From a virus (Duplodnaviria; Caudoviricetes), in the IMG/VR virus record IMGVR_UViG_3300021399_000099, positions 152,911-216,910 of that record: a DNA stretch of 64,000 bases. One strand, written 5' to 3'. Within the stretch, counting starts at the first letter, position 1. Each line of letters begins with the position of its first letter. The notes under the pieces are model-generated. The model did no database searches and was not told where the DNA came from. It worked only from the letters and a program-made list of their open reading frames with translations. Shown piece by piece: positions 9,439-39,171 of this stretch. Position numbers and translations under genes: made by a program.

Positions 9439-9525
9439 AACGTAATCCTTTTTACATAATATAATACAAAAACTGTGCCAAAAAACAAAAATGACAGCAA
9501 AAAGTGAAAAATTTGCTGTCATTTG

Positions 9526-9597
9526 TGCCAGATACAGGATTCGAACCCGCATATCAACGTTTTAGGGACGCCCGCTTTACCAATCAGCTAATCTGGC
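9526..9597 (-). tRNA. Candidate amber suppressor tRNA (anticodon CUA, C33)
   Basis: Full cloverleaf GCCAGAT/ATCTGGC; anticodon arm GGCGT-CCCTAAA-ACGTT; TTCGAAT T-loop. Confidence 0.7.
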
Positions 9598-9631
9598 AGT
9601 TAAAAAGGGAGGAACCATGTCCTCCCAAGTA

Positions 9632-9919
9632 TTATTCAACCGGTCTTAATGTCTGAAACATCAGCCCCGTATTCTCTTCCAACGCTATCGCCGTAACCGT
9701 TCCGTTCATATCTGGCTCACGGAAAGCGGAATATTTAATCCCTCGTTCTTCTAGCATCTCCATCCACTTGTCTGTGTCGGCATAAAGATAGATGAGGTAA
9801 TTGTTATTCCAAGTCTGGTTCGGGTTATCAATCAACCACTGAGCAACAGCGTGACCGGCTTGCACACAACCGTAAATCGGGCTAAGTCTCTTATTCACCA
9901 ACACATACAACCTCTTCAT
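9632..9919 (-). CDS. Peptidyl-tRNA hydrolase, PTH2-like phage type (start MKRLYVLV)
   Basis: 'LYVLV...VQAGHAVA...FREPD...TAIA' motifs. Confidence 0.75.
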   Translation of the reverse strand: MKRLYVLVNKRLSPIYGCVQAGHAVAQWLIDNPNQTWNNNYLIYLYADTDKWMEMLEERGIKYSAFREPDMNGTVTAIALEENTGLMFQTLRPVE

Positions 9920-18591: not shown

Positions 18592-18961
18592 TGGAGCTGA
18601 CGCGACTCGAACGCGTGTCTTCAGGCATACCAATACGCTTTCTACATGCTTATTTCGGCTTAAAATCCAATAATCAAGAGCCGAGCACAACTTGATTATC
18701 TTTCTGAATCCAATCTTCCAGACCACTTTGTTTGCAATTACACTCCCATTGGGACGGATAACAAAGAAAACAGTCCCGAGAATGTTCGTCCCGACCCTGC
18801 CTTGGGGCCGATGGATTAAGCTAACTCACCTGGTGAATTAAGCAGCGAAAGAATACGCATAAGCGTCAACTATTTTTTTGAAGTTCTGATTAAAGTGGTT
18901 TCCTCCAATCCACTGCATGCTTACGGACCGCATATATCTGAATCAAAACCAGAACAGCCCC
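18592..18961 (-). ncRNA. ssrA: tmRNA, tag (A)DAYAYSFAA*
   Basis: 5' GGGGCTG / 3' CAGCTCC-A with G3:U70; T-arm; AAAAATAGTT|GAC GCT TAT GCG TAT TCT TTC GCT GCT TAA. Confidence 0.95.
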
Positions 18962-19105
18962 ATAAATAAAGCAACGTTGCCGAATCGAACTTTATTGTGG
19001 TGCTCAATTTTTCCACACCACTCACCGCTTCGAGCTACTCTTTCTTGCGCTCTAAGACATATCCTCGGGTGTCGCAAGTGTCGTTTAAACACCAACATTG
19101 CTTTG

Positions 19106-19179
19106 TGGACCGGATGGGATTCGAACCCACAACAACTAGAATGCAAATCTAGCGCTCTACCAATTGGAGCTACCAGCCC
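19106..19179 (-). tRNA. tRNA-Ala(TGC)
   Basis: G3:U70; TT-TGC-AT. Confidence 0.95.
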
Positions 19180-19482
19180 ATAATGTGATTTTTGTCTCCA
19201 TCAAATAGTTACTCATTGGTTATCCGGTTGCAACCGCACCTCAGACACTTGTCTTACCCGCACGGCCCTACTTCACTATTGACTTTAACCATTCCTGAGT
19301 TTTTTAACCTTTCTAAACTCCTTTCATCGGCTATTCACCTGCCTACTCACTAAATATAGTTTTTAAGGAGTAACGTTACCTCTCCCTTAGTGCTCATTTG
19401 GCTGCGCAACCGTGGTCTCGCACATAGCCACCGATATTAACGCATATCTCCACGACGCGCTTTAAGGACGGCGTAATCCTTG

Positions 19483-19568
19483 CGGAGAGCGGAGGTGTCG
19501 AACCCCATACGTTTCACCGTACGAATAGTTTTCAAGACTACCTTCGGAGCCGTCCGAATTCACTCTCC
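19483..19568 (-). tRNA. (8/4) tRNA-Ser(TGA)
   Basis: 8 bp acceptor GGAGAGTG/CGCTCTCC, 4 bp T-stem, 6 bp D-stem. Confidence 0.85.
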
Positions 19569-20495
19569 AAGATTGTTTCGTTTTCTATAGTCAGACATTG
19601 CGTGTTTTCCAACCCCAAAATGTTTTGCTATACTTTTCCACGTTAGTCCAGTTTCCCTAAGTTTTATTACTTCGGCTTTTGAAATATTATCAGTTTTTCT
19701 TTTTATATGTTCTTCTTTAATTTTTCTACCCTTTACCCACCCATTTTTAACATATTCTGCGAGGTCTTCCTTTTTTATTTTTAGGTTTTTTACGCCATTA
19801 GTAATCCAACATGTACCGTACTGTGAATTTTTAACACCAATTTGGTCGCCGTTTGCTCTGTGCGAATTTGACATCTTTTCTTTTGTTAACTCGGAATGGT
19901 TTCTTCCCACCCAAACAGCTTTTAATTCCCCGTTTAAATATCTTTCATCATCAAGATTAACAGACATCGTATTGCCGCTCATATCATAAACGGTTATTCT
20001 TCCTTTAGATTGATGAAGATACCTTTCTTGGTTATTTTTATATTCAGAGGTTTCAATAAGCTTATATTTTTCCTCTTCGGTGTCAAAAACTGCGATTTTT
20101 CCTTTAGAAAAGGGAACATATTTTCCGGAAAGATAATCTTCATCATCCGGCTTAATCCTATAAAAAACACCATTTTCGTCTCTAACCAAGATTGTTCCGG
20201 TGGTGACACCAAAATCACCACCAATTTTTAAGTTATAACAATTGGTATCCAAAACACAAGATTCGGTCACTACTTCATTTTCATATTCGGATGCCTGCTC
20301 TCGTGTTTTAAAATATTTTAGGATTGTCTTTTTAAAATTTTCCTTACCAAACTGTCTATACGCCCTTTTCAATCTCCTTCCAGACCCCATATAGCCATCC
20401 TCAATGTCGTTTGTTGAGTGTATCCCAAAATAATAATTTCCGTTTAACTGGTTTTCAATCTTATAAAAATAATGATATTTGTAATCACGTTCCAT
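19560..20495 (-). CDS. GIY-YIG homing endonuclease (Seg-like) with NUMOD3-like and HTH segments
   Basis: 'YFYKIEN.LNG.YYFGIHST...DGYMGSG', 'YNLKIGG', 'HSELTKEKMS'; stop overlaps the tRNA-Ser 5' end. Confidence 0.85.
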   Translation of the reverse strand: MERDYKYHYFYKIENQLNGNYYFGIHSTNDIEDGYMGSGRRLKRAYRQFGKENFKKTILKYFKTREQASEYENEVVTESCVLDTNCYNLKIGGDFGVTTGTILVRDENGVFYRIKPDDEDYLSGKYVPFSKGKIAVFDTEEEKYKLIETSEYKNNQERYLHQSKGRITVYDMSGNTMSVNLDDERYLNGELKAVWVGRNHSELTKEKMSNSHRANGDQIGVKNSQYGTCWITNGVKNLKIKKEDLAEYVKNGWVKGRKIKEEHIKRKTDNISKAEVIKLRETGLTWKSIAKHFGVGKHAMSDYRKRNNLGE

Positions 20496-20561
20496 ATGTT
20501 CGTATTTATAATATAAATATAACGAACACGCGAAACCATGTAAATATTTTTCAAAAAAAAC

Positions 20562-20628
20562 GGGAAACGGTTGTTGTTTTCAAAGCCAAAAATTGAATAT
20601 TAACGTTAAAACTTGCTGTGTGTTTCCC
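20562..20628 (-). ncRNA. Stand-alone ACAGCAA RNA displaying a Gln(TTG)-like loop
   Basis: GGGAAAC-AC-ACAGCAA...TTCAA-TTTTTGGCT-TTGAA...GTTTCCC. Confidence 0.65.
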
Positions 20629-20765
20629 TTATGTTTCTAATTACCACTATTCCCTTCTGGATTTCGTTATCCACTTTGGTCAGTACTGGGAAATCGGACA
20701 TCCTGACTTTGGTGCGGAATCTGGAATTGCACCGCTCCTACTTTCCTGATTTTATGGTAATTACG

Positions 20766-20849
20766 TGCGGCAGGTGAGACTCGAACTCACACGGGAATAA
20801 TGCCCACCAGTCCCTCAAACTGGCCTGGCTACCATTACAGCACTGCCGC
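20766..20849 (-). tRNA. tRNA-Leu(GAG)
   Basis: Class II cloverleaf; TT-GAG-GG. Confidence 0.9.
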
Positions 20850-20919
20850 ATAATGTCTGTTTCTTATCCTTTTCGGTCACCCTTAATAAGTGTTGAACAG
20901 ACCTAAAGTCTCCCTAGTA

Positions 20920-21042
20920 TGCTGAGAGTTGGATTCGAACCAACGCGTGTCAATTCCGTCGCACCAGAATTGTGATAGCGGGCTTCCCCATAGTTGCGAT
21001 TCCGGGGTCCTCCGCTGTGTTCAGCCACTTCACTACCTCAGC
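20920..21042 (-). tRNA. tRNA-like RNA with elongated anticodon and variable arms
   Basis: GCTGAGG/TCTCAGC; normal D and T arms. Confidence 0.5.
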
Positions 21043-21156
21043 CTTCGAGACCATATTTTTACCCGGCTGGTTAGACCGGTCCGACTTGTCAATGAACTTG
21101 CTTTATTAATATACAAAAACTGTGCCAAAAACACAAATTTTTTGCAAAAAATTTTG

Positions 21157-21237
21157 TCCGGATGGCTGGATTCGAACCAGCGAGGCGTTTGCGGGGCCTT
21201 ATGAGAGCCCTCCGATACCAGCTTCGGGCACATCCGG
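21157..21237 (-). tRNA. tRNA with CAT anticodon (Met/Ile2) and long variable loop
   Basis: GGGCT-CT-CAT-AA-GGCCC. Confidence 0.8.
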
Positions 21238-21244
21238 ATGCCTA

Positions 21245-21559
21245 TTACTTAAAAAGACCTTCGATTTTTCCTTTTATTTTCTTTATATCATCCTCAATTT
21301 CCTGAATAAGGTCATAATCGGAATCTTCCTTGTCAATTTCGGCTATTACTTTTTCAATGCCAATTATTTCACCCTTAAATATTTCGAGTGTTTCCGGGTC
21401 GTTTTTAGCGTTATCGTCGTTATTAATTTGTTTGATATGCTTTTCTATGTCCGAAAAACATGCCCTCATCTTATGAAGTTCATGATGCTTTGTTTCCTTA
21501 TAAGTCACATAACACCCTAGAACAATTAGCAATACAAATATTAAAATTATCCAAAACAT
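21245..21559 (-). CDS. Hypothetical membrane-anchored coiled-coil protein
   Basis: N-terminal TM segment, 104 aa. Confidence 0.6.
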   Translation of the reverse strand: MFWIILIFVLLIVLGCYVTYKETKHHELHKMRACFSDIEKHIKQINNDDNAKNDPETLEIFKGEIIGIEKVIAEIDKEDSDYDLIQEIEDDIKKIKGKIEGLFK

Positions 21560-21576
21560 AATACTATAATTTTTAA

Positions 21577-22677
21577 TTAGTTAGCAGGGGTGCAAGGATT
21601 CAAACCCTGACCAACGGTTTTTAGTATTTCCGGCATATATTTCTTAATGAAATCCATAAGCGTTTGTCTGTTAATACCGGTAGTTTTACTTAATTTAGTT
21701 AGCCACCCTCTTTCACTAGTATCTATTCCCGCCTCTACTATTATTTTTTTTCTATTTCTTATTTTTTCTTTATCTTCTTCCTTTTTTTTAATTTGGCTAT
21801 CTTTTCTCCTCTTTACTGACTCAATAGCCTTTTCTTTCGTATAACAAGTTGCATAAAAATCTGGGTCGTTTTTCATTAAAAATTCCCTAACATGTAATTG
21901 GGTCATTCCAACCAATTCGCCAGCTTTCTTTACCCACCCCCATTTTTGAAAATCTATCCCACTATTTTTTATAGTTTCAAGTTTTTCGGTTGTTGTTTTT
22001 ATTTTTTCCTCTTCTTTTTGAATTTTTTTATTTAGCTTTTCTTCAACCTCTTTTATTATTTCCTTTGCTGTTCTTTTCTTTGCATTTTTCCCGCAATAGT
22101 TATCAGTTAAAGCATGACAGTTTGGGCATAAAATCTGTAGGTTTTCAATAGAATTGTTGGTTCTGTCTCCGTCTATGTGATGAACTTGTAGTGGTATCGG
22201 TTCCCCTTCCCATTCAACTCTTCCACATCTTTCGCACACCCTTTCTTTAATCCCAAACTTAAACAAGTAACCAGATATTCTGCTACTTGATATTAAGCTT
22301 TCCTTTTTAAAAATATCTTCTTCTTTTAAAGAGTTTTTATGCTGGTTGCTTTTCCCCTTTCTATTAAAATGAGTGGTATCTAACCCATATTTTTTGGCGA
22401 TTTTTTTAAATTCTAAATATGTATTACTTCCTACACTCAAATTAAGCTCTTTTGCCACCTCTGAAAAATTGTTTTTTACTTTAATCAGTTCACAAACCGC
22501 TTTCTCCCTTTTTTCTTTTTCTTTTTGGTTTTGCGTAATGTGTTTTTGGTCTTCCATGAATTTTGGCGCAAGAACCAGTTTAATATATCTTTTATCCTCG
22601 TTTAAAATTTTAGAAATTTCTTCCCTTGTTTTTCCTTCATCATATAAGGCATATACCTTTTTCATTCGCTCGTTCAT
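21577..22677 (-). CDS. HNH homing endonuclease
   Basis: 'CERCG...LQVHHIDGDRTNNSIENLQILCPNCH'. Confidence 0.9.
   Translation of the reverse strand: MNERMKKVYALYDEGKTREEISKILNEDKRYIKLVLAPKFMEDQKHITQNQKEKEKREKAVCELIKVKNNFSEVAKELNLSVGSNTYLEFKKIAKKYGLDTTHFNRKGKSNQHKNSLKEEDIFKKESLISSSRISGYLFKFGIKERVCERCGRVEWEGEPIPLQVHHIDGDRTNNSIENLQILCPNCHALTDNYCGKNAKKRTAKEIIKEVEEKLNKKIQKEEEKIKTTTEKLETIKNSGIDFQKWGWVKKAGELVGMTQLHVREFLMKNDPDFYATCYTKEKAIESVKRRKDSQIKKKEEDKEKIRNRKKIIVEAGIDTSERGWLTKLSKTTGINRQTLMDFIKKYMPEILKTVGQGLNPCTPAN
21585..21622 (-). pseudogene. 3' half of a Trp-type tRNA embedded in the end of the HNH gene
   Basis: AAAACCGT-TGGT-CAGGG-TTTGAAT-CCTTG-CACCCCT-G. Confidence 0.6.
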
Positions 22678-22752
22678 CTCTTTTTATTTTTGCTATATAT
22701 AAATATATACGAACTTGGAAAAAAAATCAAGGTTTTAATTTTTTTTTACCTG

Positions 22753-22837
22753 CAAGAGTGGGAGGATTCGAACCCCCGAGGACATTACTCCTTCTGGTTT
22801 TGGAGACCAGTGCCATCAACCACTCGGCCACACTCTT
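22753..22837 (-). tRNA. tRNA-Trp(CCA) with long variable arm
   Basis: CTGGT-CT-CCA-AA-ACCAG. Confidence 0.85.
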
Positions 22838-22846
22838 ATATTTTAC

Positions 22847-22911
22847 GGGAAACTGTTTTTAATGTCGGCGTTACAGGCTGATTTTCAAAAGTAACTTGCT
22901 GTCTGTTTCCC
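22847..22911 (-). ncRNA. Stand-alone ACAGCAA RNA displaying a Tyr(GTA) anticodon stem-loop
   Basis: GGGAAAC-AG-ACAGCAA...TCAGC-CTGTAAC-GCCGA...GTTTCCC. Confidence 0.7.
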
Positions 22912-22921
22912 TATATTTTAT

Positions 22922-23392
22922 TTATCTTCTTGCCTTATAGTCGGCCATCGTAGTTGATAGCGGGCAGAGCGTCTTCCATCTACATTCAAATCCCTCTGAC
23001 TCAACCCATCCTTTAGCCGCACTAAAGGCTACGTTAGACCCAGCATCCTCATCCGGACTAATGTCAATGTCAATATACTTAACAAAGATGCCAGAATCCC
23101 TCATTAACTTTGCTACATCAAGAGAAGCCATTGTTTCGTCCATCATTCTGTCAAAAATCTCAGACTTCTTATATCTTCTACTTCTCCAAGTCCTGGAAAT
23201 AACGTGCGCCCCATGTCCATGCTCACCATCGCCACTGTCGTAAAGGGCGACAATTGTAGCAAAACAAGTGTGCCCGCCGTGGCATTGAGAGTCCGTACTA
23301 ACCATAATCTGGATATTACGGTGTGTGTGGCAGTAGTTGCCTACATAAGTTACCAGGTCTATTTTCTCCCCATTAAATTTCTTGAACTCCAT
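22922..23392 (-). CDS. RNase H-like YkuK/DUF458 family protein
   Basis: 'VSTDSQ...FATIVAL...GAH...RMMDE..SL..A...IDIDI...SN...AD'. Confidence 0.8.
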   Translation of the reverse strand: MEFKKFNGEKIDLVTYVGNYCHTHRNIQIMVSTDSQCHGGHTCFATIVALYDSGDGEHGHGAHVISRTWRSRRYKKSEIFDRMMDETMASLDVAKLMRDSGIFVKYIDIDISPDEDAGSNVAFSAAKGWVESEGFECRWKTLCPLSTTMADYKARR

Positions 23393-23432
23393 ACTTCATA
23401 CTCCTTAACTTTTATAAATATTATCCTTTTTG

Positions 23433-23516
23433 CGGAAGACTGAGGTGCCGACCCCCACACCATACAGTGCGCTTCGCTTTCAAGACGAGCCCCAAGGCCG
23501 CTCAGGTTAATCTTCC
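23433..23516 (-). tRNA. (8/4) tRNA-Ser(TGA)
   Basis: GGAAGATT/AGTCTTCC; T-stem GGGG/CCTC. Confidence 0.85.
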
Positions 23517-23525
23517 ATATTTGTG

Positions 23526-23608
23526 CGGATAGCGGAGGTCCCGACCCCCACCCCAAAAGGAGCGTACCGCTTTCGAGACGGACTTGAGCCCCGCCCAATT
23601 CACTATCC
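23526..23608 (-). tRNA. (8/4) tRNA-Ser(CGA)
   Basis: GGATAGTG/CGCTATCC; CT-CGA-AA. Confidence 0.85.
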
Positions 23609-23609
23609 G

Positions 23610-23699
23610 AGGAAGAGACTGGTACCGACCCAGACCCGTTTTTTAGACGAGCAGACACCTTTCCAGAGTGCTCCGGTAACCCCGACCGGTTCCTCTTCC
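23610..23699 (-). tRNA. (8/4) tRNA-Ser(GGA)
   Basis: GGAAGAGG/TCTCTTCC; CT-GGA-AA; T-stem CTGG/CCAG. Confidence 0.8.
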
Positions 23700-23703
23700 A
23701 ATA

Positions 23704-23797
23704 TGGCGGTGAGGGAGGGGCTCGAACCCTCGCGCCGGGTTTTAACCGACCTAACGGTTTAGCAAACCGTCCCCTTCACCAACTTGGGTACCTCACC
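23704..23797 (-). tRNA. tRNA-Ser(GCT), CCA encoded
   Basis: Canonical class II cloverleaf. Confidence 0.95.
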
Positions 23798-23801
23798 ATA
23801 G

Positions 23802-23872
23802 TTGGGATATTTAGATTCGAACTAAAATAACAACTTTCAGAGAGTTGCATGTTACCATTACATCATACCCCA
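23802..23872 (-). tRNA. tRNA-Gln(CTG)
   Basis: CAACT-CT-CTG-AA-AGTTG. Confidence 0.9.
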
Positions 23873-23879
23873 ATATTTA

Positions 23880-23947
23880 CAGGAAACATTTGTTCAGAAT
23901 GTTAGATTAAAAGTCTAGTCCTTAAAAACTTGCTGTATGTTTCCTTG
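23880..23947 (-). ncRNA. Stand-alone ACAGCAA RNA displaying a Lys(TTT) anticodon stem-loop
   Basis: GGAAAC-AT-ACAGCAA...TAGA-CTTTTAA-TCTA...GTTTCC. Confidence 0.75.
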
Positions 23948-24019
23948 AGCGGGTAGCCAGAATCGAACTGGCGTTTCCAGCATGGCAAGCTGGCGCACTA
24001 GCCACTGTGCTATACCCGC
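23948..24019 (-). tRNA. tRNA-Gly(GCC)
   Basis: CCAGC-TT-GCC-AT-GCTGG. Confidence 0.95.
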
Positions 24020-24187
24020 GAATGCACTTACTAAACCCATAATAACTGGTACCGCTTTTCATTACGGACAACATCGGTGCAATGTTTGCCATAGGCATCA
24101 TTGGATTTAACATCTTTCTCCATTTCAGGTCCATCAGCATCTTCCTCAACCGCAGAATCAAGTCCTGCTTTCATAGTATGGCTTTTG

Positions 24188-24262
24188 TCGGGAAGACCGG
24201 ATTCGAACCGACATGCTCCTGCCTCCGATGCAGGCGAGATAAAACCATTCCTCTACTTCCCG
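24188..24262 (-). tRNA. tRNA-Pro(CGG)
   Basis: CCTGC-AT-CGG-AG-GCAGG. Confidence 0.85.
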
Positions 24263-24266
24263 TTAT

Positions 24267-24350
24267 TGGTGGCACTACCGGATTCGAACCGGTGTTTGGA
24301 ATACTCCCCAGAGCCACAATCTGGTGCCTAACCTCTCGGCCAAGTGTCAC
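24267..24350 (-). tRNA. tRNA-His(GTG) with long variable arm
   Basis: G-1:C73; CCAGA-TT-GTG-GC-TCTGG. Confidence 0.85.
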
Positions 24351-24351
24351 G

Positions 24352-24430
24352 CGGGCACGACCCGAATCGAACGGGTGCCTTCAGAGCTTCAATCTGACGC
24401 GCAAATAACAACCACCTACGCTACATGCCC
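24352..24430 (-). tRNA. tRNA-Phe(GAA)
   Basis: TCAGA-TT-GAA-GC-TCTGA. Confidence 0.85.
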
Positions 24431-24437
24431 ATTATTG

Positions 24438-24691
24438 TGGAGGCCCCCGGAGTCGAGCCGGGTTCTCCGGATTGTTTGATGCATAGGATTCGAACCTATA
24501 TTCCCTGCGATGGGGCAACCTTTATGAAGAATACCTGCCTCTTCTTGGATTCGTTTTCACATCTCAGACCGTTACTCCGCTTATCTTTTCACAGTCTCCG
24601 CGGAACTCCTCCCGATGGTATGCCACTTCCCATTCAGCATCAAAGTGTCCATAATTCAGTCCGGTGCATAGACCACCTCTGCCAGACCTCC
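24438..24691 (-). tRNA. Interrupted tRNA (Phe-GAA, or Val-GAC with a different junction); ~180 nt insert holds a nested tRNA-like element
   Basis: CCGGA-CT-GAA|insert|AA-TCCGG; nested TTTGATGC/GCATCAAA stem with T-arm ATAGG-TTCGAAT-CCTAT. Confidence 0.7.
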
Positions 24692-24794
24692 ATAATTGCC
24701 AGGCGAAGCTAACCTGGCCCCGAGATTAATCCTGGCTCATCATCTCGGTGTGATAACTTAAAGCCATATCCGTTTATCACTAAGCTTACTTTTG

Positions 24795-24868
24795 TGGGCA
24801 AGGCAGAACTCGAATCTGCGCTCTCCTGAATATCAGTCAGGTGCTTTCACCAACTAAGCTACTCGCCC
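24795..24868 (-). tRNA. tRNA-Ile(GAT)
   Basis: CCTGA-CT-GAT-AT-TCAGG. Confidence 0.9.
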
Positions 24869-24878
24869 AATATATTTG

Positions 24879-24953
24879 TACCCCCGGTGGGATTCGAACC
24901 CACACTACATAGACCCTAAATCTATTGCCATCTTCCAGTTGGGCTACGGAGGC
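24879..24953 (-). tRNA. tRNA-Leu(TAG), short variable loop
   Basis: ATAGA-TT-TAG-GG-TCTAT. Confidence 0.85.
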
Positions 24954-25032
24954 ATTTTGGTGCTCAATTCTTATAAGGCGTCTGCAGAGCACCACCCACG
25001 CCAGTATTCTACAAAAATCGTGCCAAACTTTG

Positions 25033-25107
25033 TAGCCCCGGTCAGATTCGAACTGACACTTTACAGATTTTGAGACTGTTGCCATCTTCCAGTTGGGCTA
25101 CGGGGCC
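25033..25107 (-). tRNA. tRNA-Leu(CAA), short variable loop
   Basis: CT-CAA-AA loop. Confidence 0.85.
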
Positions 25108-25181
25108 ATAAAAAGCACTCCTACTTACATCCCTTAGTCCCCGTTTTTGGTATGTCGGGACATAGTAAAGTCTGTGCTTAG

Positions 25182-25256
25182 TACCCTTGGTGAGATTCGA
25201 ACTCACACTGTATAGGTCCTTAACCTATTGCCGGCTTCCAGTTGGGCTACAAGGGC
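25182..25256 (-). tRNA. tRNA-Leu(AAG), short variable loop, A34
   Basis: ATAGG-TT-AAG-GA-CCTAT. Confidence 0.85.
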
Positions 25257-25341
25257 ATATATAAGTTTTTGTATCATACCTTACTATTGAGGTTGAATAT
25301 TTAATATTCATTTATACTTAGGATAACTTTAAACCTTCTTT

Positions 25342-25419
25342 TGGTACCTCCGGTGGGATTCGAACCCACACTTGACAGGTCTTTAAGTCCTTTGCCGCTT
25401 CCAGTTGGGCTACGGAGGC
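25342..25419 (-). tRNA. tRNA-Leu(TAA), short variable loop, weak anticodon stem
   Basis: CT-TAA-AG loop; paralog of its neighbours. Confidence 0.7.
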
Positions 25420-25423
25420 ATTT

Positions 25424-25559
25424 AACAGGCTCATCAGCGTATCCGTTACTTTCAGGCTTTCAGCTAAATAGCGTTCTGCGACGTCTGTCAGGGCTTTGTT
25501 TAGCCTAGCACCCTCCTCCGATTTAAAGAATCCCGAACCAACGTGGATTCTACCTGTTT
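25424..25559 (-). ncRNA. Unknown ~135 nt structured RNA, copy 2
   Basis: Closing stem AACAGG/CCTGTT; core AAGCCCTGACAGACGTCGCAGAACGCT shared with 10870-10896. Confidence 0.6.
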
Positions 25560-25560
25560 G

Positions 25561-25635
25561 TACCCCCAGTGGGATTCGAACCCACACATAAATACGGTCT
25601 GAACGTAAAGCCTCTACCAATTGGGCTACAAGGGC
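25561..25635 (-). tRNA. tRNA-Leu(CAG), short variable loop
   Basis: TACG-TT-CAG-AC-CGTA. Confidence 0.85.
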
Positions 25636-25642
25636 ATATGAT

Positions 25643-25773
25643 AAAATTATATATTCAATGTAGTAATGGCCACTTCTACAAATTTTACAGCCAGTGTTTT
25701 AACCTCATAAACTATCATATTTGACTACTCTGCAGATTTGAACTCACTTCTCTGACTTGTAATACATAATTTT
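25643..25773 (-). ncRNA. Permuted tRNA mimic with YrlA/Y-RNA-like topology
   Basis: Long closing stem, GTCAG, T-arm-like TTCAAAT, D-arm GTTT/AAAC, CTGGC. Confidence 0.45.
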
Positions 25774-25776
25774 ATG

Positions 25777-25851
25777 AGCTCCTAACCGGATTCGAACCGA
25801 TACTTAAACTTTACAAGAGTCTCGTGCTCAGCCATTAAACACCATAGGAGC
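25777..25851 (-). tRNA. tRNA-Thr(TGT)
   Basis: AGACT-CT-TGT-AA-AGTTT. Confidence 0.9.
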
Positions 25852-26123
25852 ATATGGTTTTCTTTTAAATGCGGTCATGTCCTTCCATGCTTATTGCCAC
25901 TTGGGTCTAACCCAAGACATGGGGTGTCATAACTTGGCAGGCTAACCAAGCCTGATTCATTTATCTTTGTTTGGGCTCACGCGATTATTGCGCCGAAGCG
26001 GGAAAATGTCTCCGATTAAAAACCGCTCCTTTTGAGGTTGATAGTGGGAGCGACCACACTACCTTTTTACCTCTCAGCAAGTTACACCTCAGGGACTTGC
26101 AATCTCCTTTCAGTGCTTCCTAG

Positions 26124-26218
26124 TGGGCAGGGAGGGATTCGAACCCTCTTACTGCGAAGTCCGCTACGACTATTTGTTAACGCAGATTGGTTTTACAGAC
26201 CAGTGCCGTTACCTACCC
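26124..26218 (-). tRNA. tRNA-Tyr(GTA) with relocated D-arm strand, copy 1
   Basis: Only TAACGGCA between acceptor and anticodon stems; enlarged variable arm contains TAGTCGTAGCGG. Confidence 0.75.
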
Positions 26219-26231
26219 ATTTTGGTTTTTG

Positions 26232-26409
26232 CGGGGATAGCAGGGCTCGAACCTACAACCTATTGATTAAGACCCGATAAGAGGAATCGAACCTCTGTTA
26301 CCATGTGTCGTAAGACTAGGTGTCCTATACCACTAAACGATACCGAGTTGGTTAATTTCGGATAACCGCCCCGTTTCAGTCAATTGCTCTACCATTGAGC
26401 TATATCCCC
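26232..26409 (-). tRNA. tRNA-Asn(GTT) with 106 nt intron (26271-26376) containing a nested tRNA
   Basis: ATTGA-CT-G|TT-AA-TCAAT. Confidence 0.85.
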
Positions 26410-26417
26410 ATTGTTTG

Positions 26418-26501
26418 CGTTTGGTGCAGGATTCGAACCTACGGTGTTCTTCACACGGCACATTAACAGTGTGCTGCCTTAAACCACTCGGCCAACCAAA
26501 C
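26418..26501 (-). tRNA. tRNA-Asn(GTT) with long variable arm
   Basis: GCACA-CT-GTT-AA-TGTGC. Confidence 0.85.
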
Positions 26502-26508
26502 ATATTTG

Positions 26509-26587
26509 TCGCGAAGACTGGACTCGAACCAGCATCCCCCTGCCTCCTATGCAGGCCGCTTACAAAAACCAATTAGCGTACTTCGCG
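26509..26587 (-). tRNA. tRNA-Pro(AGG), A34
   Basis: CCTGC-AT-AGG-AG-GCAGG. Confidence 0.8.
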
Positions 26588-26599
26588 TTATATTTTATG

Positions 26600-26671
26600 A
26601 GCCCCTTGTCGGAATCGAACCAACATCTAGGCGTTACGAATGCCTTATAATAGCCGTTATACTAAAAGGGC
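26600..26671 (-). tRNA. tRNA-Thr(CGT)
   Basis: TT-CGT-AA loop. Confidence 0.9.
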
Positions 26672-26774
26672 ATATAATGATAACCGTAGTTGGGTTTGTC
26701 AAAGTACCTTTATCTGCCATATTCTCAAGAGCCCAACCTTGTGGCATTGATTATGTACATGCAGTTATCATTTG

Positions 26775-26847
26775 TGGCGGTAACCGGAGTCGAACCGATA
26801 TCTGGTGGGTCAAAGCCACCCATACTCAGCCTTTGTACGATACCGCT
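26775..26847 (-). tRNA. tRNA-Gln(TTG)
   Basis: GGTGG-CT-TTG-AC-CCACC. Confidence 0.85.
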
Positions 26848-26848
26848 G

Positions 26849-26922
26849 TGGACACATGTGGGATTCGAACCCCTCCTTCACAGTGCAAGTGTGAGGTGCT
26901 ACCAAGTTACACTACACGGCCC
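26849..26922 (-). tRNA. tRNA-Ala(TGC), irregular acceptor stem
   Basis: TCACA-CT-TGC-AC-TGTGA. Confidence 0.75.
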
Positions 26923-26929
26923 ATATTTG

Positions 26930-27018
26930 TGGAACTTACGGATTCGAACCGCCTGTTATCGGGTCTTCCCTCGTTATTTCACCCCGTGAGCATCCGCCCC
27001 CAACTGGCTTTAAGTCCC
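26930..27018 (-). ncRNA. Ala-acceptor (G3:U70) tRNA-like RNA lacking a canonical anticodon arm
   Basis: GGGACTTA/TAAGTTCC-A with TTCGAAT T-loop. Confidence 0.5.
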
Positions 27019-27026
27019 ATATTTTG

Positions 27027-27121
27027 TGGGAGAGGTGAGACTCGAACTCACTTACCGCGAAGGCCAATACGGCTATTTGGTGACGCGGGTTGGTTTTACA
27101 GACCAGTGCCGTTACTCTCCC
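27027..27121 (-). tRNA. tRNA-Tyr(GTA) with relocated D-arm strand, copy 2
   Basis: Same architecture as 26124-26218 with compensatory changes. Confidence 0.75.
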
Positions 27122-27129
27122 ATAATTTG

Positions 27130-27314
27130 TGGCTCCGAAGAGGATTCGAACCTCCATTCAGACAGTAGCCTTCCGGATTGGCACTTGTCCCTGTGTTTAT
27201 TCTTGCGCCCAACCTTTGGCAGCTCGCGACACTGTTGTTCCTCACTGTCAGGTAACCCCTATTACACACTTCCCTCACCATGCAAGGGCGACTTTACCGT
27301 TTGTCTATCAAGCC
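27130..27314 (-). tRNA. tRNA-like gene with ~110 nt insertion in the variable loop
   Basis: GGCTTGA acceptor, D-arm GAC/GTC, T-arm GGAGG-TTCGAAT-CCTCT. Confidence 0.5.
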
Positions 27315-27321
27315 ATATTTG

Positions 27322-27394
27322 TACTCCTATCGGGAGTCGAACCCGAATCCCCGGACTGAGAATCCGGTCGCCTGAACCATTAGCAGATAGGAGC
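27322..27394 (-). tRNA. tRNA-Glu(CTC)
   Basis: CCGGA-TT-CTC-AG-TCCGG. Confidence 0.9.
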
Positions 27395-27422
27395 ATATAT
27401 TTCAGTATGTCAAAGAACATAT

Positions 27423-27501
27423 TGGTACTGGGGACGGGACTCGAACCCGCATTTACCGACTTGAAAGGCCGATTACCTAAGACCAATTAGTAGACCCCAG
27501 C
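27423..27501 (-). tRNA. tRNA-Glu(TTC), CCA encoded
   Basis: TCGGC-CT-TTC-AA-GTCGG. Confidence 0.9.
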
Positions 27502-27507
27502 ATATTG

Positions 27508-27702
27508 TGGTGAGGGTAGGATTCGAACCTACAATAGCCAAATTAAAGGCAGCGAGTGTACGAGTTCGCTTTGCTCACCTACCACGCTCGTAACGTGGAA
27601 TCACAAACTTATCTACATATCAATTATAGTTTCAATAAGATGTACGGTCAAATCTACCTCTATAATCTCAGTTAGCTTCGTCTGAAACTTTGCTGCCTCA
27701 CC
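27508..27702 (-). tRNA. Tyr-like class II tRNA body with ~110 nt D-region insertion
   Basis: GGTGAGG/CCTCACC-A; T-arm GTAGG-TTCGAAT-CCTAC; AGCGA/TCGCT arm. Confidence 0.5.
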
Positions 27703-27739
27703 ATATATATCAATGAACTTTTATATCAATGAACTTTAG

Positions 27740-27813
27740 CGGTCCTGACCGGATTCGAACCGGCACCACGCACCGTGACAGGGTGGCATTGTAAACCATT
27801 CAACCACAGGACC
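27740..27813 (-). tRNA. tRNA-Asp(GTC)
   Basis: CT-GTC-AC loop. Confidence 0.9.
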
Positions 27814-27821
27814 AATATTTG

Positions 27822-27934
27822 TGGAGATAGATGGCATCGAACCATCACCCGTTATTTTTTCTCAGATTTGTACTCTGACCGAACTTGCAGCTTTCGCCTT
27901 GGGCCCGCACTCTGCCATATTGAGCTATATCCCC
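27822..27934 (-). ncRNA. Ala-acceptor tRNA-like RNA with anticodon arm replaced by a ~55 nt domain
   Basis: GGGGATA/TATCTCC-A (G3:U70); normal D and T arms. Confidence 0.55.
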
Positions 27935-27942
27935 ATTTAATG

Positions 27943-28027
27943 TGCGTCCAATGGGACTCGAACCCATAACGCCTTACGGACCCCTCTGATTAAAAGTCAG
28001 ATGCGCTACCAATTGCGCCATGGACGC
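27943..28027 (-). tRNA. tRNA-Lys(TTT) with long variable arm
   Basis: TCTGA-CT-TTT-AA-TCAGA plus ~16 nt variable region. Confidence 0.85.
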
Positions 28028-28100
28028 CTAATTTTCAAAGAACTTTTCTAATATATTACAAAAGCCATGCCAAACTTTTTCAGTTCTTATAATTTTTTTG

Positions 28101-28175
28101 TCGGGACAGAAAGATTCGAACTTTCATTGCTACTGTATCAGAGTAGTATCCTAAGACCGTTTAGATGATGTCCCG
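28101..28175 (-). tRNA. tRNA-Ile(GAT)
   Basis: CTACT-CT-GAT-AC-AGTAG. Confidence 0.85.
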
Positions 28176-28196
28176 TTATGTTTCAAATAACTTTTG

Positions 28197-28271
28197 TGGT
28201 CCCGGTGGGATTCGAACCCACAACCCGACGGGTAAGAGCCGCCTACGCTAATCCAGTTGCGCCACGAGACC
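28197..28271 (-). tRNA. tRNA-Lys(CTT)
   Basis: GGCGG-CT-CTT-AC-CCGTC. Confidence 0.9.
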
Positions 28272-28282
28272 ATATTTATTTG

Positions 28283-28357
28283 TGCCCCCGGTGGGACTCG
28301 AACCCACAATCACGCACCTTAAAAGGGTGGAGCTTTAACCAATTCAGCTACAAGGGC
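28283..28357 (-). tRNA. tRNA-Lys(TTT)
   Basis: CACC-CT-TTT-AA-GGTG. Confidence 0.9.
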
Positions 28358-28442
28358 TTTCCAAGAACCTATTTGCCGGCTTAATTTATTACCTGTAACC
28401 GGCAGGCTCCATTTTCTTTCTTAGCCCTCGTATCTTGGAGAG

Positions 28443-28679
28443 CTAAAGATTGTATTTTCGTTTAAACTCTTTCATATCTATTTCTTCTTTTTTAACTTCC
28501 GTTCTTTTTCCGTTAATGACAACTTCAATGGGGAACTGTGATTCGTCCCAGAAATACTCTTCCGGCTTCACCTTTGTTCCGTCTTCAAAAAACAATTCAC
28601 ATTCTCCCCTTTCAATCATCTTCCTAACCATCAAGGTTGCAACATAAATTGCTTCTATTTTTTGTTCGTTGTCTGTCAT
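28443..28679 (-). CDS. Hypothetical protein
   Basis: 78 aa ORF directly after the sigma54-like motif at 28692-28707. Confidence 0.55.
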   Translation of the reverse strand: MTDNEQKIEAIYVATLMVRKMIERGECELFFEDGTKVKPEEYFWDESQFPIEVVINGKRTEVKKEEIDMKEFKRKYNL

Positions 28680-28905
28680 ATTGTCTATATTATCAAAAAC
28701 CGTGCCAAACTTTACTTTTGAAACGGACTTTTTAATCCTTTCGTGTAAGGTATGTAGTAAAGTACTTGATTATCAGTCAAATTCTCGTACCACTCGTCAA
28801 AGTACTTAAGAAACTTCTTATGTACGTTATACCTCCACTCGTTCCAAAGGTATTCTTTTAACTTATCGTTTTGCCCCGCTTTCCATAACTATATTCTTTA
28901 TTTCG

Positions 28906-28979
28906 AGCCCAGAGCCGGATTCGAACCGGCGAATGTCAGTTTTGCAGACTGATAGGTTAGACCACTTCCCCATCTGGGC
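28906..28979 (-). tRNA. tRNA-Cys(GCA)
   Basis: TCAGT-CT-GCA-AA-ACTGA; U73. Confidence 0.9.
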
Positions 28980-28987
28980 ATATTTTG

Positions 28988-29066
28988 TGGAGCGGACGGG
29001 GTTCGAACCCGCAACTCCATCCCTCATATAACTGAATGGCTTTTCCGTTTTTAAAGCTACCACCCC
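28988..29066 (-). tRNA. Ala-acceptor tRNA-like RNA with 11 nt anticodon loop
   Basis: GGGGTGG/CCGCTCC-A; CATTC-AGTTATATGAG-GGATG. Confidence 0.5.
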
Positions 29067-29072
29067 ATTTTG

Positions 29073-29145
29073 TACCCCGGGCCGGAATCGAACCGACATC
29101 TTATGTTCCGTAGACACACGCTCTAATCCGTTGAGCTACCAGGGC
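29073..29145 (-). tRNA. tRNA-Arg(ACG)
   Basis: CT-ACG-GA loop; A20. Confidence 0.9.
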
Positions 29146-29152
29146 ATTTTTG

Positions 29153-29223
29153 TAGTCCCAATGCGAATCGAACGCATATCGTAGGAATCGGAATCCTAAA
29201 TTCTTCCGTTAAACTATGGGACC
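29153..29223 (-). tRNA. tRNA-Arg(CCG)
   Basis: TAGGA-TT-CCG-AT-TCCTA. Confidence 0.9.
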
Positions 29224-29404
29224 ATGGTAGCCGTGACTTTAATTACGCAGTTACACGGCACCCCTATCTCTGCGAGCAACCATTACGGTTTCTGTTAGGG
29301 TTATGTTGCTATCAACCCGTCAGGCCGTCGTCCCTGCTCTAGCGCTGCTTCCGCGACAGACACAATTTCTTCCCTATCTCAGTCTAAGGGGAACCTGACT
29401 ATTG

Positions 29405-29479
29405 AGCCCTCAGTCGGATTCGAACCAACACTTTTACCATACCACAGTAATGTACTCAACCATTAAATACGATAAGGGC
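29405..29479 (-). tRNA. tRNA-Thr(GGT)
   Basis: TTACT-GT-GGT-AT-GGTAA. Confidence 0.85.
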
Positions 29480-29487
29480 TTAAAACG

Positions 29488-29665
29488 TACCCCCGTGCAG
29501 ATTCGAACTGCAATTAAGAGTTTAGGATTGGGTAGCGGGAATTGAACCACGCGACACACTGAGGAATTGCTTCCACCGGCTCTGACCACCTGAGCTATAC
29601 CCGATAATTTGTTTCGGTAAATTACTCCGTGTAAGACTCTGGTCCTTCCATTGAACGACAGGGGC
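29488..29665 (-). tRNA. tRNA-Arg(TCT) with 107 nt intron (29526-29632) containing a nested tRNA-like element
   Basis: AGAGT-CT-T|CT-AA-ACTCT. Confidence 0.85.
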
Positions 29666-29836
29666 ATATTTCAAAATGATGTCTTCCCACCAGAATGATA
29701 TCCTTCTGTTTTTTACGTGGGATGGTATCTGTCATTTTCCAATCTCGGGAGTTTCTCATCGGAAAGCGCTTAATCCGTATGCACCACCTTCTTCATTAGA
29801 CGACTTGACATCATTATATATTTCAAAGAACTTGTG

Positions 29837-29910
29837 TGTGGCTGGATGGATTCGAACCAACGGCTTTCTGCACGTCAAGCAGATGTACTTACCCACTATA
29901 CGACAACCAC
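29837..29910 (-). tRNA. tRNA-Val(GAC)
   Basis: TCTGC-TT-GAC-GT-GCAGA. Confidence 0.9.
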
Positions 29911-30038
29911 ATAAAGCGACAACCCGCGAATTCTATCTTGCACAACGGTATCATAGTTAAGGCTGGCCGAAGAGTTACCCCTCGATTTAAAGTTCCCATG
30001 AACACACCTTAACACCTCACTATATTTCAAATAACTTG

Positions 30039-30110
30039 TACCCGGGAGACGACTCGAACGTCCAATCTTCGCTTTAGGGGAGCGCTGCATTTCCATTATG
30101 CTACCCAGGC
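30039..30110 (-). tRNA. tRNA-Arg(CCT), C33
   Basis: CGCT-CC-CCT-AA-AGCG. Confidence 0.85.
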
Positions 30111-30124
30111 ATATAATCTTATAT

Positions 30125-30206
30125 TACAAATACCGTGCCAAACTTTTCAAACTACTAAAAAAAATTTCATTTGTTTCTGGACCACTATATTACAAATACC
30201 GTGCCA
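30125..30206 (-). promoter_or_regulatory. Two identical sigma54-type promoters at the head of the tRNA array (30125-30140, 30191-30206)
   Basis: TGGCACGGTATTTGTA twice. Confidence 0.65.
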
Positions 30207-30225
30207 AACTTGAGTTGTGGGTATT

Positions 30226-30277
30226 AAAAAACCTCCGAATCTTGGGTTTTTCCTTGCCGGAGCCTTAGATTGGAGGT
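30226..30277 (-). terminator. Attenuator terminator upstream of the tRNA array
   Basis: ACCTCC-AATCT...AGATT-C-GGAGGT-TTTTT. Confidence 0.75.
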
Positions 30278-30324
30278 GAAGTTAAGATGTATGTTGTGGT
30301 TAGAAACCTATGTGCGATTTTTTT

Positions 30325-30483
30325 CTAAGTTCGCATCACTCCTACTTCTCCCCTTGCTCCGGGTGCCTCATACCATTCATTACCTTTAAGGTAACTTCCA
30401 CAGAGTACGGCAGCGGCCAGGTCAATTCTGGTGAAATCGACTGGGCGTGAAAACTGCTTCGTATTATGTAACATCTGTGTCAT
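30325..30483 (-). CDS. Putative codon-sampling attenuation leader peptide (52 aa, MTQMLHNTKQ...GVMRT)
   Basis: A-rich initiation region; all 20 amino acids; 41 distinct codons; 3' end complementary to the terminator 5' arm. Confidence 0.7.
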   Translation of the reverse strand: MTQMLHNTKQFSRPVDFTRIDLAAAVLCGSYLKGNEWYEAPGARGEVGVMRT

Positions 30484-30588
30484 TGAATGTATGATTTTTT
30501 TTGTTTTTGATTTTTGTTCGCTATATAAATAGTACAAAAAATAAAAAAGAAAAGCAAGAGAAAAATATTTTTTTTTTAAATTTTTTTC

Positions 30589-31083
30589 TTAAAACTTCTT
30601 TTTTCTGCCCTTTTCCTTCTTCTGGGCGGCTCTTTCTGCCTTTTCCTGGGCTTTCTTCTCAGCCATCTGTGCGAGTGTATATTGTGCAAGGAGTGCCGAA
30701 TCAACTGCAGCGTTCTTGAACTTCTCGTACATACCTACCGGGACCGTAATGCTGGGGGCACCGATGATAATCTTCTCCTTTTCGCTGTCATAGGAAATCT
30801 GGTCCATTGCAAGACGCAGCCACATATATTTGTTATCCAAACCGTTCTCGTCAGGTCCGTCCGGGAGAAGGTCAAAAGCTTCCCCATTAACAAGCACAAG
30901 AATGAGGTCCTCACGACCGGAAAGATATTCGGCATATTCGTTCGCCCTGACAATCTTTACGACTTCCTTAAGATTCACAACGTCAAGTGTTTCAAAATCA
31001 ACGAATTGTGAAAGACCAAGCTCGTGTGCAATCTCATCAACAAGTTTTACGATACTTTCATCTGCCTTAAAAAACTTTGCCAT
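30589..31083 (-). CDS. Conserved-looking hypothetical phage protein
   Basis: 164 aa ORF, basic C-terminal tail. Confidence 0.65.
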   Translation of the reverse strand: MAKFFKADESIVKLVDEIAHELGLSQFVDFETLDVVNLKEVVKIVRANEYAEYLSGREDLILVLVNGEAFDLLPDGPDENGLDNKYMWLRLAMDQISYDSEKEKIIIGAPSITVPVGMYEKFKNAAVDSALLAQYTLAQMAEKKAQEKAERAAQKKEKGRKKKF

Positions 31084-31176
31084 ATTCAGTTAAATGTTTA
31101 AATTATTTATTATTGTATTTTTTTACCTTATATTGTATTGTAAAGGAAATATACAAACTATTTTTTAAAAAACCAA

Positions 31177-39032: not shown

Positions 39033-39171
39033 TTTAAAAAACGGGGAGATTTTTCTTCCCGTTTTACTATTTATATTTGATATTACGATAGAAATGGTGT
39101 TCTATAACACTTGTGAATAATGGCTCTATAGCTGTAAAATAAAAACAAATTAACAAAAGAAAAAACAAACT

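Follow-up and report, generated by a model that had tools for sequence, protein, structure and literature searches.

In the amino-acid-operon attenuators, such as trpL, hisL, pheL, thrL, ilvL and the predicted Bacteroidota trp leaders, a short leader open reading frame (ORF) precedes an intrinsic terminator, an alternative helix that overlaps the ORF excludes this terminator, and the position of the ribosome chooses between the two structures. To our knowledge, the leader peptides of the classical systems respond to one amino acid or to a few related ones. Why phages carry large tRNA sets is a long-standing question. In one current view, phage tRNAs replace host tRNAs that are destroyed by anticodon nucleases (PMC10264068). 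Here we analyze a stretch of 64,000 nucleotides (nt) of a rumen jumbo phage (Caudoviricetes), positions 152,911 to 216,910 of the IMG/VR record IMGVR_UViG_3300021399_000099, which we call the window. It contains, directly ahead of a large tRNA block, an element of less than 300 nt that shares the named features with the amino-acid-operon attenuators: a short leader ORF, an intrinsic terminator and an ORF-overlapping helix that excludes it, so that here, too, ribosome position would choose between two structures. On balance we lean, if only slightly, towards reading this element as a ribosome-mediated transcription attenuator that heads the phage tRNA block, in which an untranslated or stalled leader would give read-through and a translated one termination.

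All features of the element lie on the minus strand. The leader ORF (30325..30483) starts with the ATG at 30483 and comprises 52 sense codons followed by a TAG stop (30327-30325). Our recount bore out what an earlier note, made from the sequence alone, had said about it: the ORF uses 41 distinct codons, 37 of them among its first 41 codons, and contains all 20 amino acids, the full set being complete before codon 38. The comparison with the genome background proposed in that note gave a clear result, since 41 exceeds the count of every one of the 11,165 in-frame 52-codon windows taken from the long ORFs of the window (at least 41 distinct codons in 0 of them; mean 29.0, standard deviation 3.25). 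Independent, identically distributed draws from the genome codon usage reach 41 distinct codons with P = 1.2e-4. All 20 amino acids occur together in 1.9% of the real-gene windows, 3.4% of the draws and 3.2% of the window's small ORFs taken in any frame. Upstream of the ATG, the sequence directly reads as an A-rich untranslated leader without a Shine-Dalgarno sequence (30484..30523), which is preceded by the AT-rich promoter-like box TACTATTTATA of the leader transcript (30524..30534). This box is of the TAT(A/T)TTTATA type and its position is kept in relatives. The same box stands 20-100 nt ahead of ordinary ORFs at 39065, 37875, 48452, 53925 and 23423, and it presumably acts as a promoter. 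The A-rich start context of the leader ORF matches that of the other genes: in the 216,910-bp record G000, from which the window is taken, upstream regions are A-rich and Shine-Dalgarno sequences are not enriched (6% versus 9% in a control window). Such starts are in the style of Bacteroidota, and the host is probably a member of this phylum. Downstream of the ORF follow a 26-nt motif, GCACAUAGGUUUCUAACCACAACAUAC (30289..30315), which can form a small GGUU-UCU-AACC hairpin and contains stops in two frames, and then an intrinsic terminator (30226..30277). The first tRNA, Arg(CCU) at 30038..30110, starts 116 nt after the U-run of this terminator.

The same arrangement is found in a family of relatives. 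The first of them, L001, was reached via a flanking protein of 164 amino acids and carries an element nearly identical to that of the window; for the wider search, the stretch between ORF and terminator served as anchor. Three differently anchored patterns were scanned on viral contigs, one on metagenome contigs and one on genome contigs. These anchored DNA scans recovered about 65 distinct copies, nearly all on rumen or gut jumbo-phage contigs, many of them 90-390 kb long (the window's record has 216.9 kb and is estimated to be 61% complete); one copy sits on a contig that was binned into a Bacteroidales metagenome-assembled genome. Clustering of the leader peptides at 50% identity gave 25 clusters. 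Common to all members is the order TAT(A/T)TTTATA box, A-rich leader, ATG ORF, a spacer of 1-30 nt, invariant motif, terminator and co-oriented tRNA array. The array follows in every member with enough flank, its first tRNA lying 27 to about 2,100 nt after the U-run, and the density of tRNAs is 2.7 per kb downstream versus 0.07 per kb upstream of the element. The proposal that the leader heads the tRNA array thus holds throughout, with the element always at the 5' edge of a co-oriented array. A search of 30100-31100 with blastn against 50,697 deposited phage records gave no match. With the covariance models of Rfam 15, which include T-box, known leaders, 6S and phage RNAs, we obtained no match on the element strand at E <= 1 in 29500-31200, where only the tRNAs were matched, and a full-text literature search returned no description of a leader or attenuator for phage tRNA arrays. 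If the window were looked at in isolation, one could suppose a chance ORF beside the ordinary terminator of an upstream gene and no regulatory device at all: a 52-codon ORF with all 20 amino acids appears in about 2-3% of comparable windows. Its codon count lies beyond all background windows, however, and because the whole layout is kept in 25 diverged clusters, chance is excluded for practical purposes; we give it hardly any weight.

The leader ORF appears to be maintained as a translated frame. Each of the 25 clusters has an ATG ORF of 40-69 codons whose end falls at -6 to +30 nt relative to the motif, versus 0.86 clusters expected from dinucleotide shuffles. The other two frames contain on average 2.7 and 5.7 stops. 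The peptide itself is not conserved. Among the 25 cluster representatives no alignment column is conserved except Met1, and the mean column identity is 16%. AlphaFold2 gave no confident fold with the 25-sequence alignment (predicted local distance difference test, pLDDT, 56.5; predicted template modeling score, pTM, 0.19). Since the ORF is open in every cluster, no column is conserved and the pLDDT is low, we read this pattern as a signature of selection that acts on the act of translation more than on the peptide product or its fold. The claim of a translated leader ORF is in this way strengthened by its being kept open in diverged clusters. An alternative takes the ORF for a common small protein gene of the phage that has a promoter and a terminator to itself; the peptide, perhaps a small regulator of host or phage machinery, would be the product, and the RNA pairing and amino-acid diversity would be side effects. 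In addition to the maintenance of the ORF, a ratio of nonsynonymous to synonymous polymorphism (pN/pS) of about 0.5 within clusters speaks for some constraint on the peptide, and the promoter box is one that ordinary genes share. The aligned peptides also show a weak scaffold, consisting of an M..M start, an aromatic residue in the middle and an end rich in Gly and basic residues. Against this idea stand the lack of conserved residues and of a confident fold, and profile searches of Pfam and PHROGs with four leader peptides returned no family.

We next consider the amino-acid content. All 20 amino acids are found in 10 of the 25 clusters, versus 0.6 expected from proteome composition, and 19 amino acids in eight more; counted by sequence, 27 of 51 unique peptides are complete. 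If each cluster had a chance of 3.2%, at least 10 complete clusters would arise with a probability of about 1e-9, under an independence of the clusters that holds only approximately. The excess resides in the first 32 residues, which hold 17.1 amino-acid types versus 15.2 (standard deviation 1.4); at least 18 types are reached there in 11 of 25 clusters, versus 4.7% expected. No excess of types is seen in the last 15 residues. Leaders with divergent peptides and conserved diversity, which the earlier note had recommended to look for upstream of tRNA arrays in related phages, are hence indeed present, with the diversity being one of amino acids. The note's concept of a pan-tRNA sensor that samples codons had to be narrowed accordingly. 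Amino-acid completeness recurs, but the number of distinct synonymous codons, given the peptide, is not raised family-wide (mean z of -0.6 with the usage of this genome and -1.15 with uniform usage), and an excess of synonymous codons is limited to the lineage of the window (z +1.8 to +2.5). We therefore rejected codon-level sampling as a property of the family; the data fit a conserved sampling of amino acids, not of isoacceptors or of the whole tRNA pool. There is no run of any one codon in the leader ORFs, as the classical regulatory-codon criterion would have it. Individual replacements can be followed in some clusters, for example I20T together with A24I, the loss of F at positions 11 and 17 with a gain at position 32, and, in the L003 cluster, a Val found at three positions.

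The 3' third of the ORF is predicted to compete with the terminator. In the window, the terminator consists of an interrupted 11-bp stem with a 24-nt loop and U6 (-15.6 kcal/mol); the 5' arm 30277-30267 pairs with the 3' arm 30242-30231, after which the U6 follows. The earlier proposal of a terminator at this place is thus confirmed in hairpin and U-run, although a simple terminator scanner misses the hairpin because its stem encloses 43 nt. In every one of the 25 clusters, a CCUC.../...GAGG stem with 5-8 contiguous pairs encloses 22-47 nt and is followed by U6-9. Ten stem versions exist, including the double change CCUCUGA/UCAGAGG to CCACUGA/UCAGUGG, and the terminator is, by these sequences, universal in the family and covarying. 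The minimum free energy (MFE) structure of the whole leader of the window (z = -3.2 versus shuffles) contains an antiterminator in place of the terminator. Its 5' strand (CCGGAGC ... GGGGAGAAGU; 30344..30362) lies within codons 41-47 of the ORF, and its 3' strand (30257..30282, from MFE fold and duplex energy) corresponds to the 5' flank, the 5' arm and part of the loop of the terminator. The duplex is calculated at -21.2 kcal/mol versus -15.6 kcal/mol for the terminator. Three pairings between ORF and terminator had been proposed. Two of them are found in the MFE fold, namely CCGGAGC (30362-30356) with GCUCCGG (30263-30257) and GGGGAGAAGU with ACUUCACCUCC, the latter as GGGG-A-GAAGU (30353-30344) on ACUUC-A-CCUC (30282-30273). 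The third, TGCGA/TCGCA, was abandoned: the hairpin is not conserved, is already gone in the closest relative and is probably due to chance. Across the family, the ORF 3' end and the terminator's 5' arm and loop are complementary, with sequences that differ by lineage, for instance GGGAAAC/GUUUCCC in L003 and CAGGAU/AUCCUG plus AGAGGU/ACCUCU in L018; the ORF-terminator duplex energies have a mean z of -1.36 versus shuffles.

The switch was examined by partition-function folding, with the mean probability of the terminator stem, P(terminator), as readout. In the naked native leader P(terminator) is 0.46 and with a ribosome at mid-ORF 0.40, and it rises to 1.00 when the ORF is masked up to the stop plus 10 nt. 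When the ORF is shuffled, the value is 0.95, and when ORFs are swapped between clusters, it is 0.79. The naked leader has a P(terminator) below 0.5 in 15 of 25 clusters, and no shuffled-ORF mean falls below 0.5. Native ORF-terminator pairs give 0.456 and swapped ones 0.791, and the native value was not reached in any of 20,000 permutations. Covariation of the antiterminator within the subfamily gave no answer, as the 3' strand varies too little, and the folding with swapped partners was used in its place. We further moved a ribosome footprint of 30 nt along the ORF. In about 13 of the 25 clusters, including the window, P(terminator) goes from roughly 0-0.4 to about 1 once the footprint is in the last 10-17 codons; in the window itself it is about 0.4 until the A site of the ribosome has passed about codon 38, and at least 0.9 thereafter. 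Finally, in two clusters the final 30% of the ORF shows 4x less synonymous divergence than the preceding 70%, as an RNA constraint on this third would lead one to expect. The modeling indicates that each ORF has a 3' third which is co-evolved with its own terminator and competes specifically with it, in agreement with the earlier claim that the ORF end and the terminator compete. For an ordinary small protein gene, neither the synonymous-site constraint nor the ORF-terminator co-evolution would be foreseen, and the fixed position at the head of the array and the completeness of 10 of 25 clusters would be unexpected for a small structural peptide. We thus consider a plain protein gene improbable.

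In the attenuator that we propose, events would unfold as follows. The transcript would start at the AT-rich promoter box, and ribosomes would load on the A-rich leader and translate the ORF of about 50 codons. With no ribosome in the last third of the ORF, be it that translation is slow, stalled or absent, the antiterminator would form and RNA polymerase would enter the tRNA block. If, during synthesis of the terminator, a ribosome covers the last 10-17 codons, it would block the antiterminator strand, so that the terminator would form and an RNA of about 265-290 nt would be released. The first two thirds of the ORF present nearly every amino acid once or twice, so that a shortage of almost any charged tRNA, or a general failure of translation, would give the same read-through signal. 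Such an element would be a generalist sensor of translation capacity and not a sensor of one amino acid. The model requires that the position of the ribosome decides termination in vivo, as the folding suggests, and that read-through matters despite promoter-like motifs further downstream.

Several observations weigh against this reading, and the first concerns the 26-nt motif. The classical attenuator model has no place for this motif, which is the most conserved part of the element and is situated in the loop of the antiterminator; in the account of the earlier note it did not appear. Its family form is (G)CACAUAGGUUUCUAACCAC(A/U)A(C/U)AUA. Three anchored searches, each of which left a different part of the motif free, recovered it without variation in true members, and there is one copy per record or locus. 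Moreover, on two contigs, L101 and L128, the promoter box, the motif and the terminator occur with neither a long ORF nor tRNAs. Because the motif is retained there, it must have a role of its own. From the sequences we infer three candidate roles: keeping polymerase and ribosome in step as a pause or spacer element, binding a phage factor or another protein, or serving as the seed of a released RNA that acts in trans. In L101 (1040-1170) and L128 (1500-1650), the ORF-less module stands directly ahead of protein genes on AT-rich phage contigs without tRNAs, and the motif is readable there as a mini-ORF of five codons, (M)HIGF-stop. Another variation is seen in L105 (520-560), where the start of the motif is partly duplicated (ACATAGGTTTC) 14 nt upstream of the full motif and the TAG of the duplicate is the leader stop codon.

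These features lend themselves to a different explanation, in which the functional core is the 3' module of 26-nt motif and terminator, either as a small RNA that termination releases and that acts in trans, or as a nut- or put-like cis site at which a phage factor would control read-through into the gene block that follows, and in which ORF and antiterminator are an input added in the lineages with tRNA arrays. The invariance of a motif present once per genome, where all else diverges, agrees with this, as does the position of promoter, motif and terminator right before protein genes in L101 and L128. A discrete RNA contig that ends at the terminator (see below) and the location of the element exactly at the start of a minus-strand block of a second promoter class fit as well, and trans-acting attenuator RNAs are known (PMC6614838). 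Looking for a partner, we found that copies or complements of the motif (>=16/18 nt) are not above the control rate in 201 Bacteroidales genomes, and no complement or further copy at this threshold turned up elsewhere in the phage record. Exact 18-mer matches in Flavobacteriaceae were discarded as copies of the element; their surrounding sequence is unrelated and is probably a protein gene. The 3' module also leaves the maintained ORF, its amino-acid completeness and the co-evolution of ORF and terminator unexplained. As the principal explanation we find it rather unlikely; it is largely compatible with attenuation and does not exclude it.

The second group of objections comes from the tRNA block itself (9525..30110), the putative regulated target. 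It contains 47 tRNA calls and a transfer-messenger RNA (tmRNA), all on the minus strand, and all tRNA and tmRNA calls of the 216.9-kb record fall inside it. Between the terminator and the first tRNA lie two exact copies of a promoter-like motif, TTTGGCACGGTATTTGTAATATA, with a sigma-54-like TGGCACG-N4-TTGT geometry, at 30186..30208 and 30120..30142 (both minus strand), the second of which ends 10 nt ahead of the first tRNA. The two lie 19 and 85 nt after the terminator, and the motif recurs before genes and tRNAs through the block. The window has 10 copies of its core, TGGYAYR-N4-TTTGT, where 0.7 are expected; they all lie on the minus strand within 932-30206, for example at 30192-30206, 30126-30140, 28693-28707, 28058-28072, 25011-25025, 21113-21127, 16495-16509, 13924-13938 and 9466-9480. 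The whole record has 24 copies, 23 of them on the minus strand between record positions 68 and 183 kb, and the two at the element are the most upstream. In L001 the promoter-like motif stands 30-35 nt ahead of each small gene and of the first tRNA. TGGCACG-N4-TTTGT is found between terminator and first tRNA in the window and most relatives, and a few are without it, such as L018 with its 27 nt to the first tRNA. The motif matches the -24 part and the spacing of sigma-54 promoters (TGGCAC-N5-TTGC), with the -12 GC replaced by GT or GA; Sigma54_DBD was not found among the proteins encoded by the 61%-complete record. We read TGGYAYR-N4-TTTGT as a putative second promoter class. Because of these motifs after the terminator, the array is probably not transcribed by read-through alone; read-through can add to its transcription. 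The idea that the leader switches on the array therefore survives as a contribution to its transcription, while the array, having promoter-like motifs of its own, probably does not depend on the leader as sole source.

RNA evidence comes from metatranscriptomes. Six runs contain about a tenth of a 2.2-kb stretch, and four of these were compared with it. In the same study as the source DNA, an RNA contig of 263 nt corresponds to 30223-30484; it begins 1 nt upstream of the ATG and extends 3 nt beyond the U-run. RNA contigs of a second study end at 30485, with adapter sequence at 30494 as a possible 5' end. In a third study, an RNA contig crosses the terminator and continues in the downstream sequence of a relative. 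With one contig ending at the terminator and another crossing it, terminated and read-through forms are both represented. Assembled contigs, on the other side, prove neither transcript ends nor strand, nor do they exclude DNA carry-over, and uncovered parts (e.g., the first tRNA) and depth differences between bins are not interpretable.

Three further points have to be set against the attenuator. The folding is equilibrium thermodynamics and not co-transcriptional kinetics, and in 8-10 of the 25 clusters this model predicts the terminator at any position of the ribosome. The mechanism also assumes coupling of transcription and translation in the probable Bacteroidota host. Regarding amino-acid completeness, we asked by randomization within clusters whether residue types that are lost come back elsewhere; the result was not significant (combined P = 0.27), so that shared ancestry could contribute to it in part. 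Taken together, of the earlier overall reading, an attenuator that senses tRNA depletion, the anatomy, the maintained ORF, the terminator, the predicted competition and the position have stood, and isoacceptor sampling, the amber stop and read-through as the sole source of tRNAs have not. Ribosome-mediated attenuation ahead of the tRNA block, for which the computational support is good, remains the explanation that we favor by a little. We can offer a more far-reaching version only tentatively, as possible rather than probable: in rumen-Bacteroidota jumbo phages, the element may be a generalist sensor of translation capacity whose amino-acid-complete leader is under selection, any shortage of charged tRNA, be it by starvation, host shut-off or an anticodon nuclease, would halt the ribosome ahead of the antiterminator strand and lead to transcription of replacement tRNAs, and under healthy translation the motif of the released RNA would act on a second partner.

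The stop codon of the leader had attracted attention in the earlier note, which had suggested that amber suppression at its TAG could serve as an activator. The stops of the 25 clusters vary (13 TAA, 7 TGA and 5 TAG), and the idea was dropped as it describes no feature of the family. We also see no clear TAG or TGA recoding in the ORF coverage of the record and no link between a suppressor tRNA(CUA) and a TAG stop of the leader. When TAG or TGA is read as sense in record G000, the ORF coverage goes up slightly and equally for both, which gives no clear recoding in the part of the genome covered. The tRNAs upstream of the element consist of a lone amber-suppressor tRNA(CUA) only, in L005, L032, L059, L085, L094, L107 and L118. 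In L032 and L059 it is located directly ahead of the leader promoter, and in the window at the far end of the array (9525-9597). Several lineages thus seem to keep the suppressor tRNA separate from the array that the leader heads.

Some other features of the locus were noticed. The tRNA block contains a phage tmRNA gene (18591-18961, minus strand) with the tag peptide DAYAYSFAA, and hence ribosome rescue is also supplied by the phage. Genes for a homing endonuclease (19563-20495) and an HNH endonuclease (21580-22677) lie among the tRNAs on the minus strand (PHROG E-values 2.5e-28 and 7.2e-40). The ARAGORN calls in 9525-30110 cover 19 amino acids and lack Phe; relatives have a tRNA-Phe(GAA) near the start of their arrays. 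The anticodon loop is odd in several of the calls ('???'), and a Phe tRNA of unusual form may be present. Of the 52 leader codons, the called phage tRNAs can read 44 under simple wobble rules. L073 (1140-1250) is a natural variant of the subfamily of the window in which terminator loop, 3' arm and U-run are missing; the 5' arm (...CACCTCCAAT) runs directly into TCCCACAACTCAAG and then the downstream promoter-like motif. Either an allele with constitutive read-through or an artefact of assembly could explain this variant.

In summary, the family defines an invariant 26-nt RNA/DNA motif and two putative promoter classes in the poorly known rumen jumbo phages. If the proposed attenuation is true, the expression of phage tRNAs would be coupled to need via a conserved cis element that reads out translation at the heads of the arrays, and the amino-acid-complete leader would represent a new design principle with one sensor for 20 amino acids. 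With its small size, the element would be a compact construct for testing the coupling of tRNA expression to need, and it could become a ready-made part for translational-stress reporters in Bacteroidota.

Compared with the amino-acid-operon attenuators, the phage leader has no run of a single codon and holds all or nearly all 20 amino acids, its target is a tRNA block and not a biosynthetic operon, and it has the 26-nt motif in the antiterminator loop and promoter-like motifs after the terminator. It differs from trp also in its three-strand design, for which read-through would be the untranslated default, whereas trp without translation terminates. By sequence and folding, the element thus appears to share three structural features of attenuators, namely ORF, terminator and antiterminator, and to lack two, a regulatory codon run and dependence on read-through. 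T-box elements similarly couple the charging state of tRNA to terminator read-through. They bind one specific uncharged tRNA and contain no ORF, whereas the phage element, which has no T-box match, would sense through the ribosome. The lambda nut and HK022 put sites and the 6S transcript of lambda PR'-tR' are alike in that a promoter-proximal conserved RNA element is followed by a terminator which gates a long block, and L101 and L128 share exactly this layout of promoter, motif, terminator and genes. In sequence and structure, there is no similarity to boxA/boxB or to the put stem-loops. A small RNA derived from an attenuator and acting in trans is rnTrpL of Sinorhizobium (PMC6614838). The terminated phage leader RNA, ending in an invariant single-stranded motif and a terminator hairpin, has the typical layout of a small RNA and may likewise have a trans role; unlike for rnTrpL, no target (>=16/18 nt) was found in the 201 Bacteroidales genomes and the phage record. 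The toiL leader upstream of topAI-yjhQ in E. coli (PMC12121999) and the leader ORFs of antibiotic-resistance genes resemble the phage element in that an upstream ORF reports many kinds of stalling to downstream expression. In contrast to toiL, the phage terminator is intrinsic, the signal would be the supply of any amino acid or tRNA, the device resides in a phage, and there is no homology. toiL reportedly acts via Rho-dependent termination and the translation of the downstream gene. By analogy, the element may in spirit stand closest to such generalist stalling sensors.

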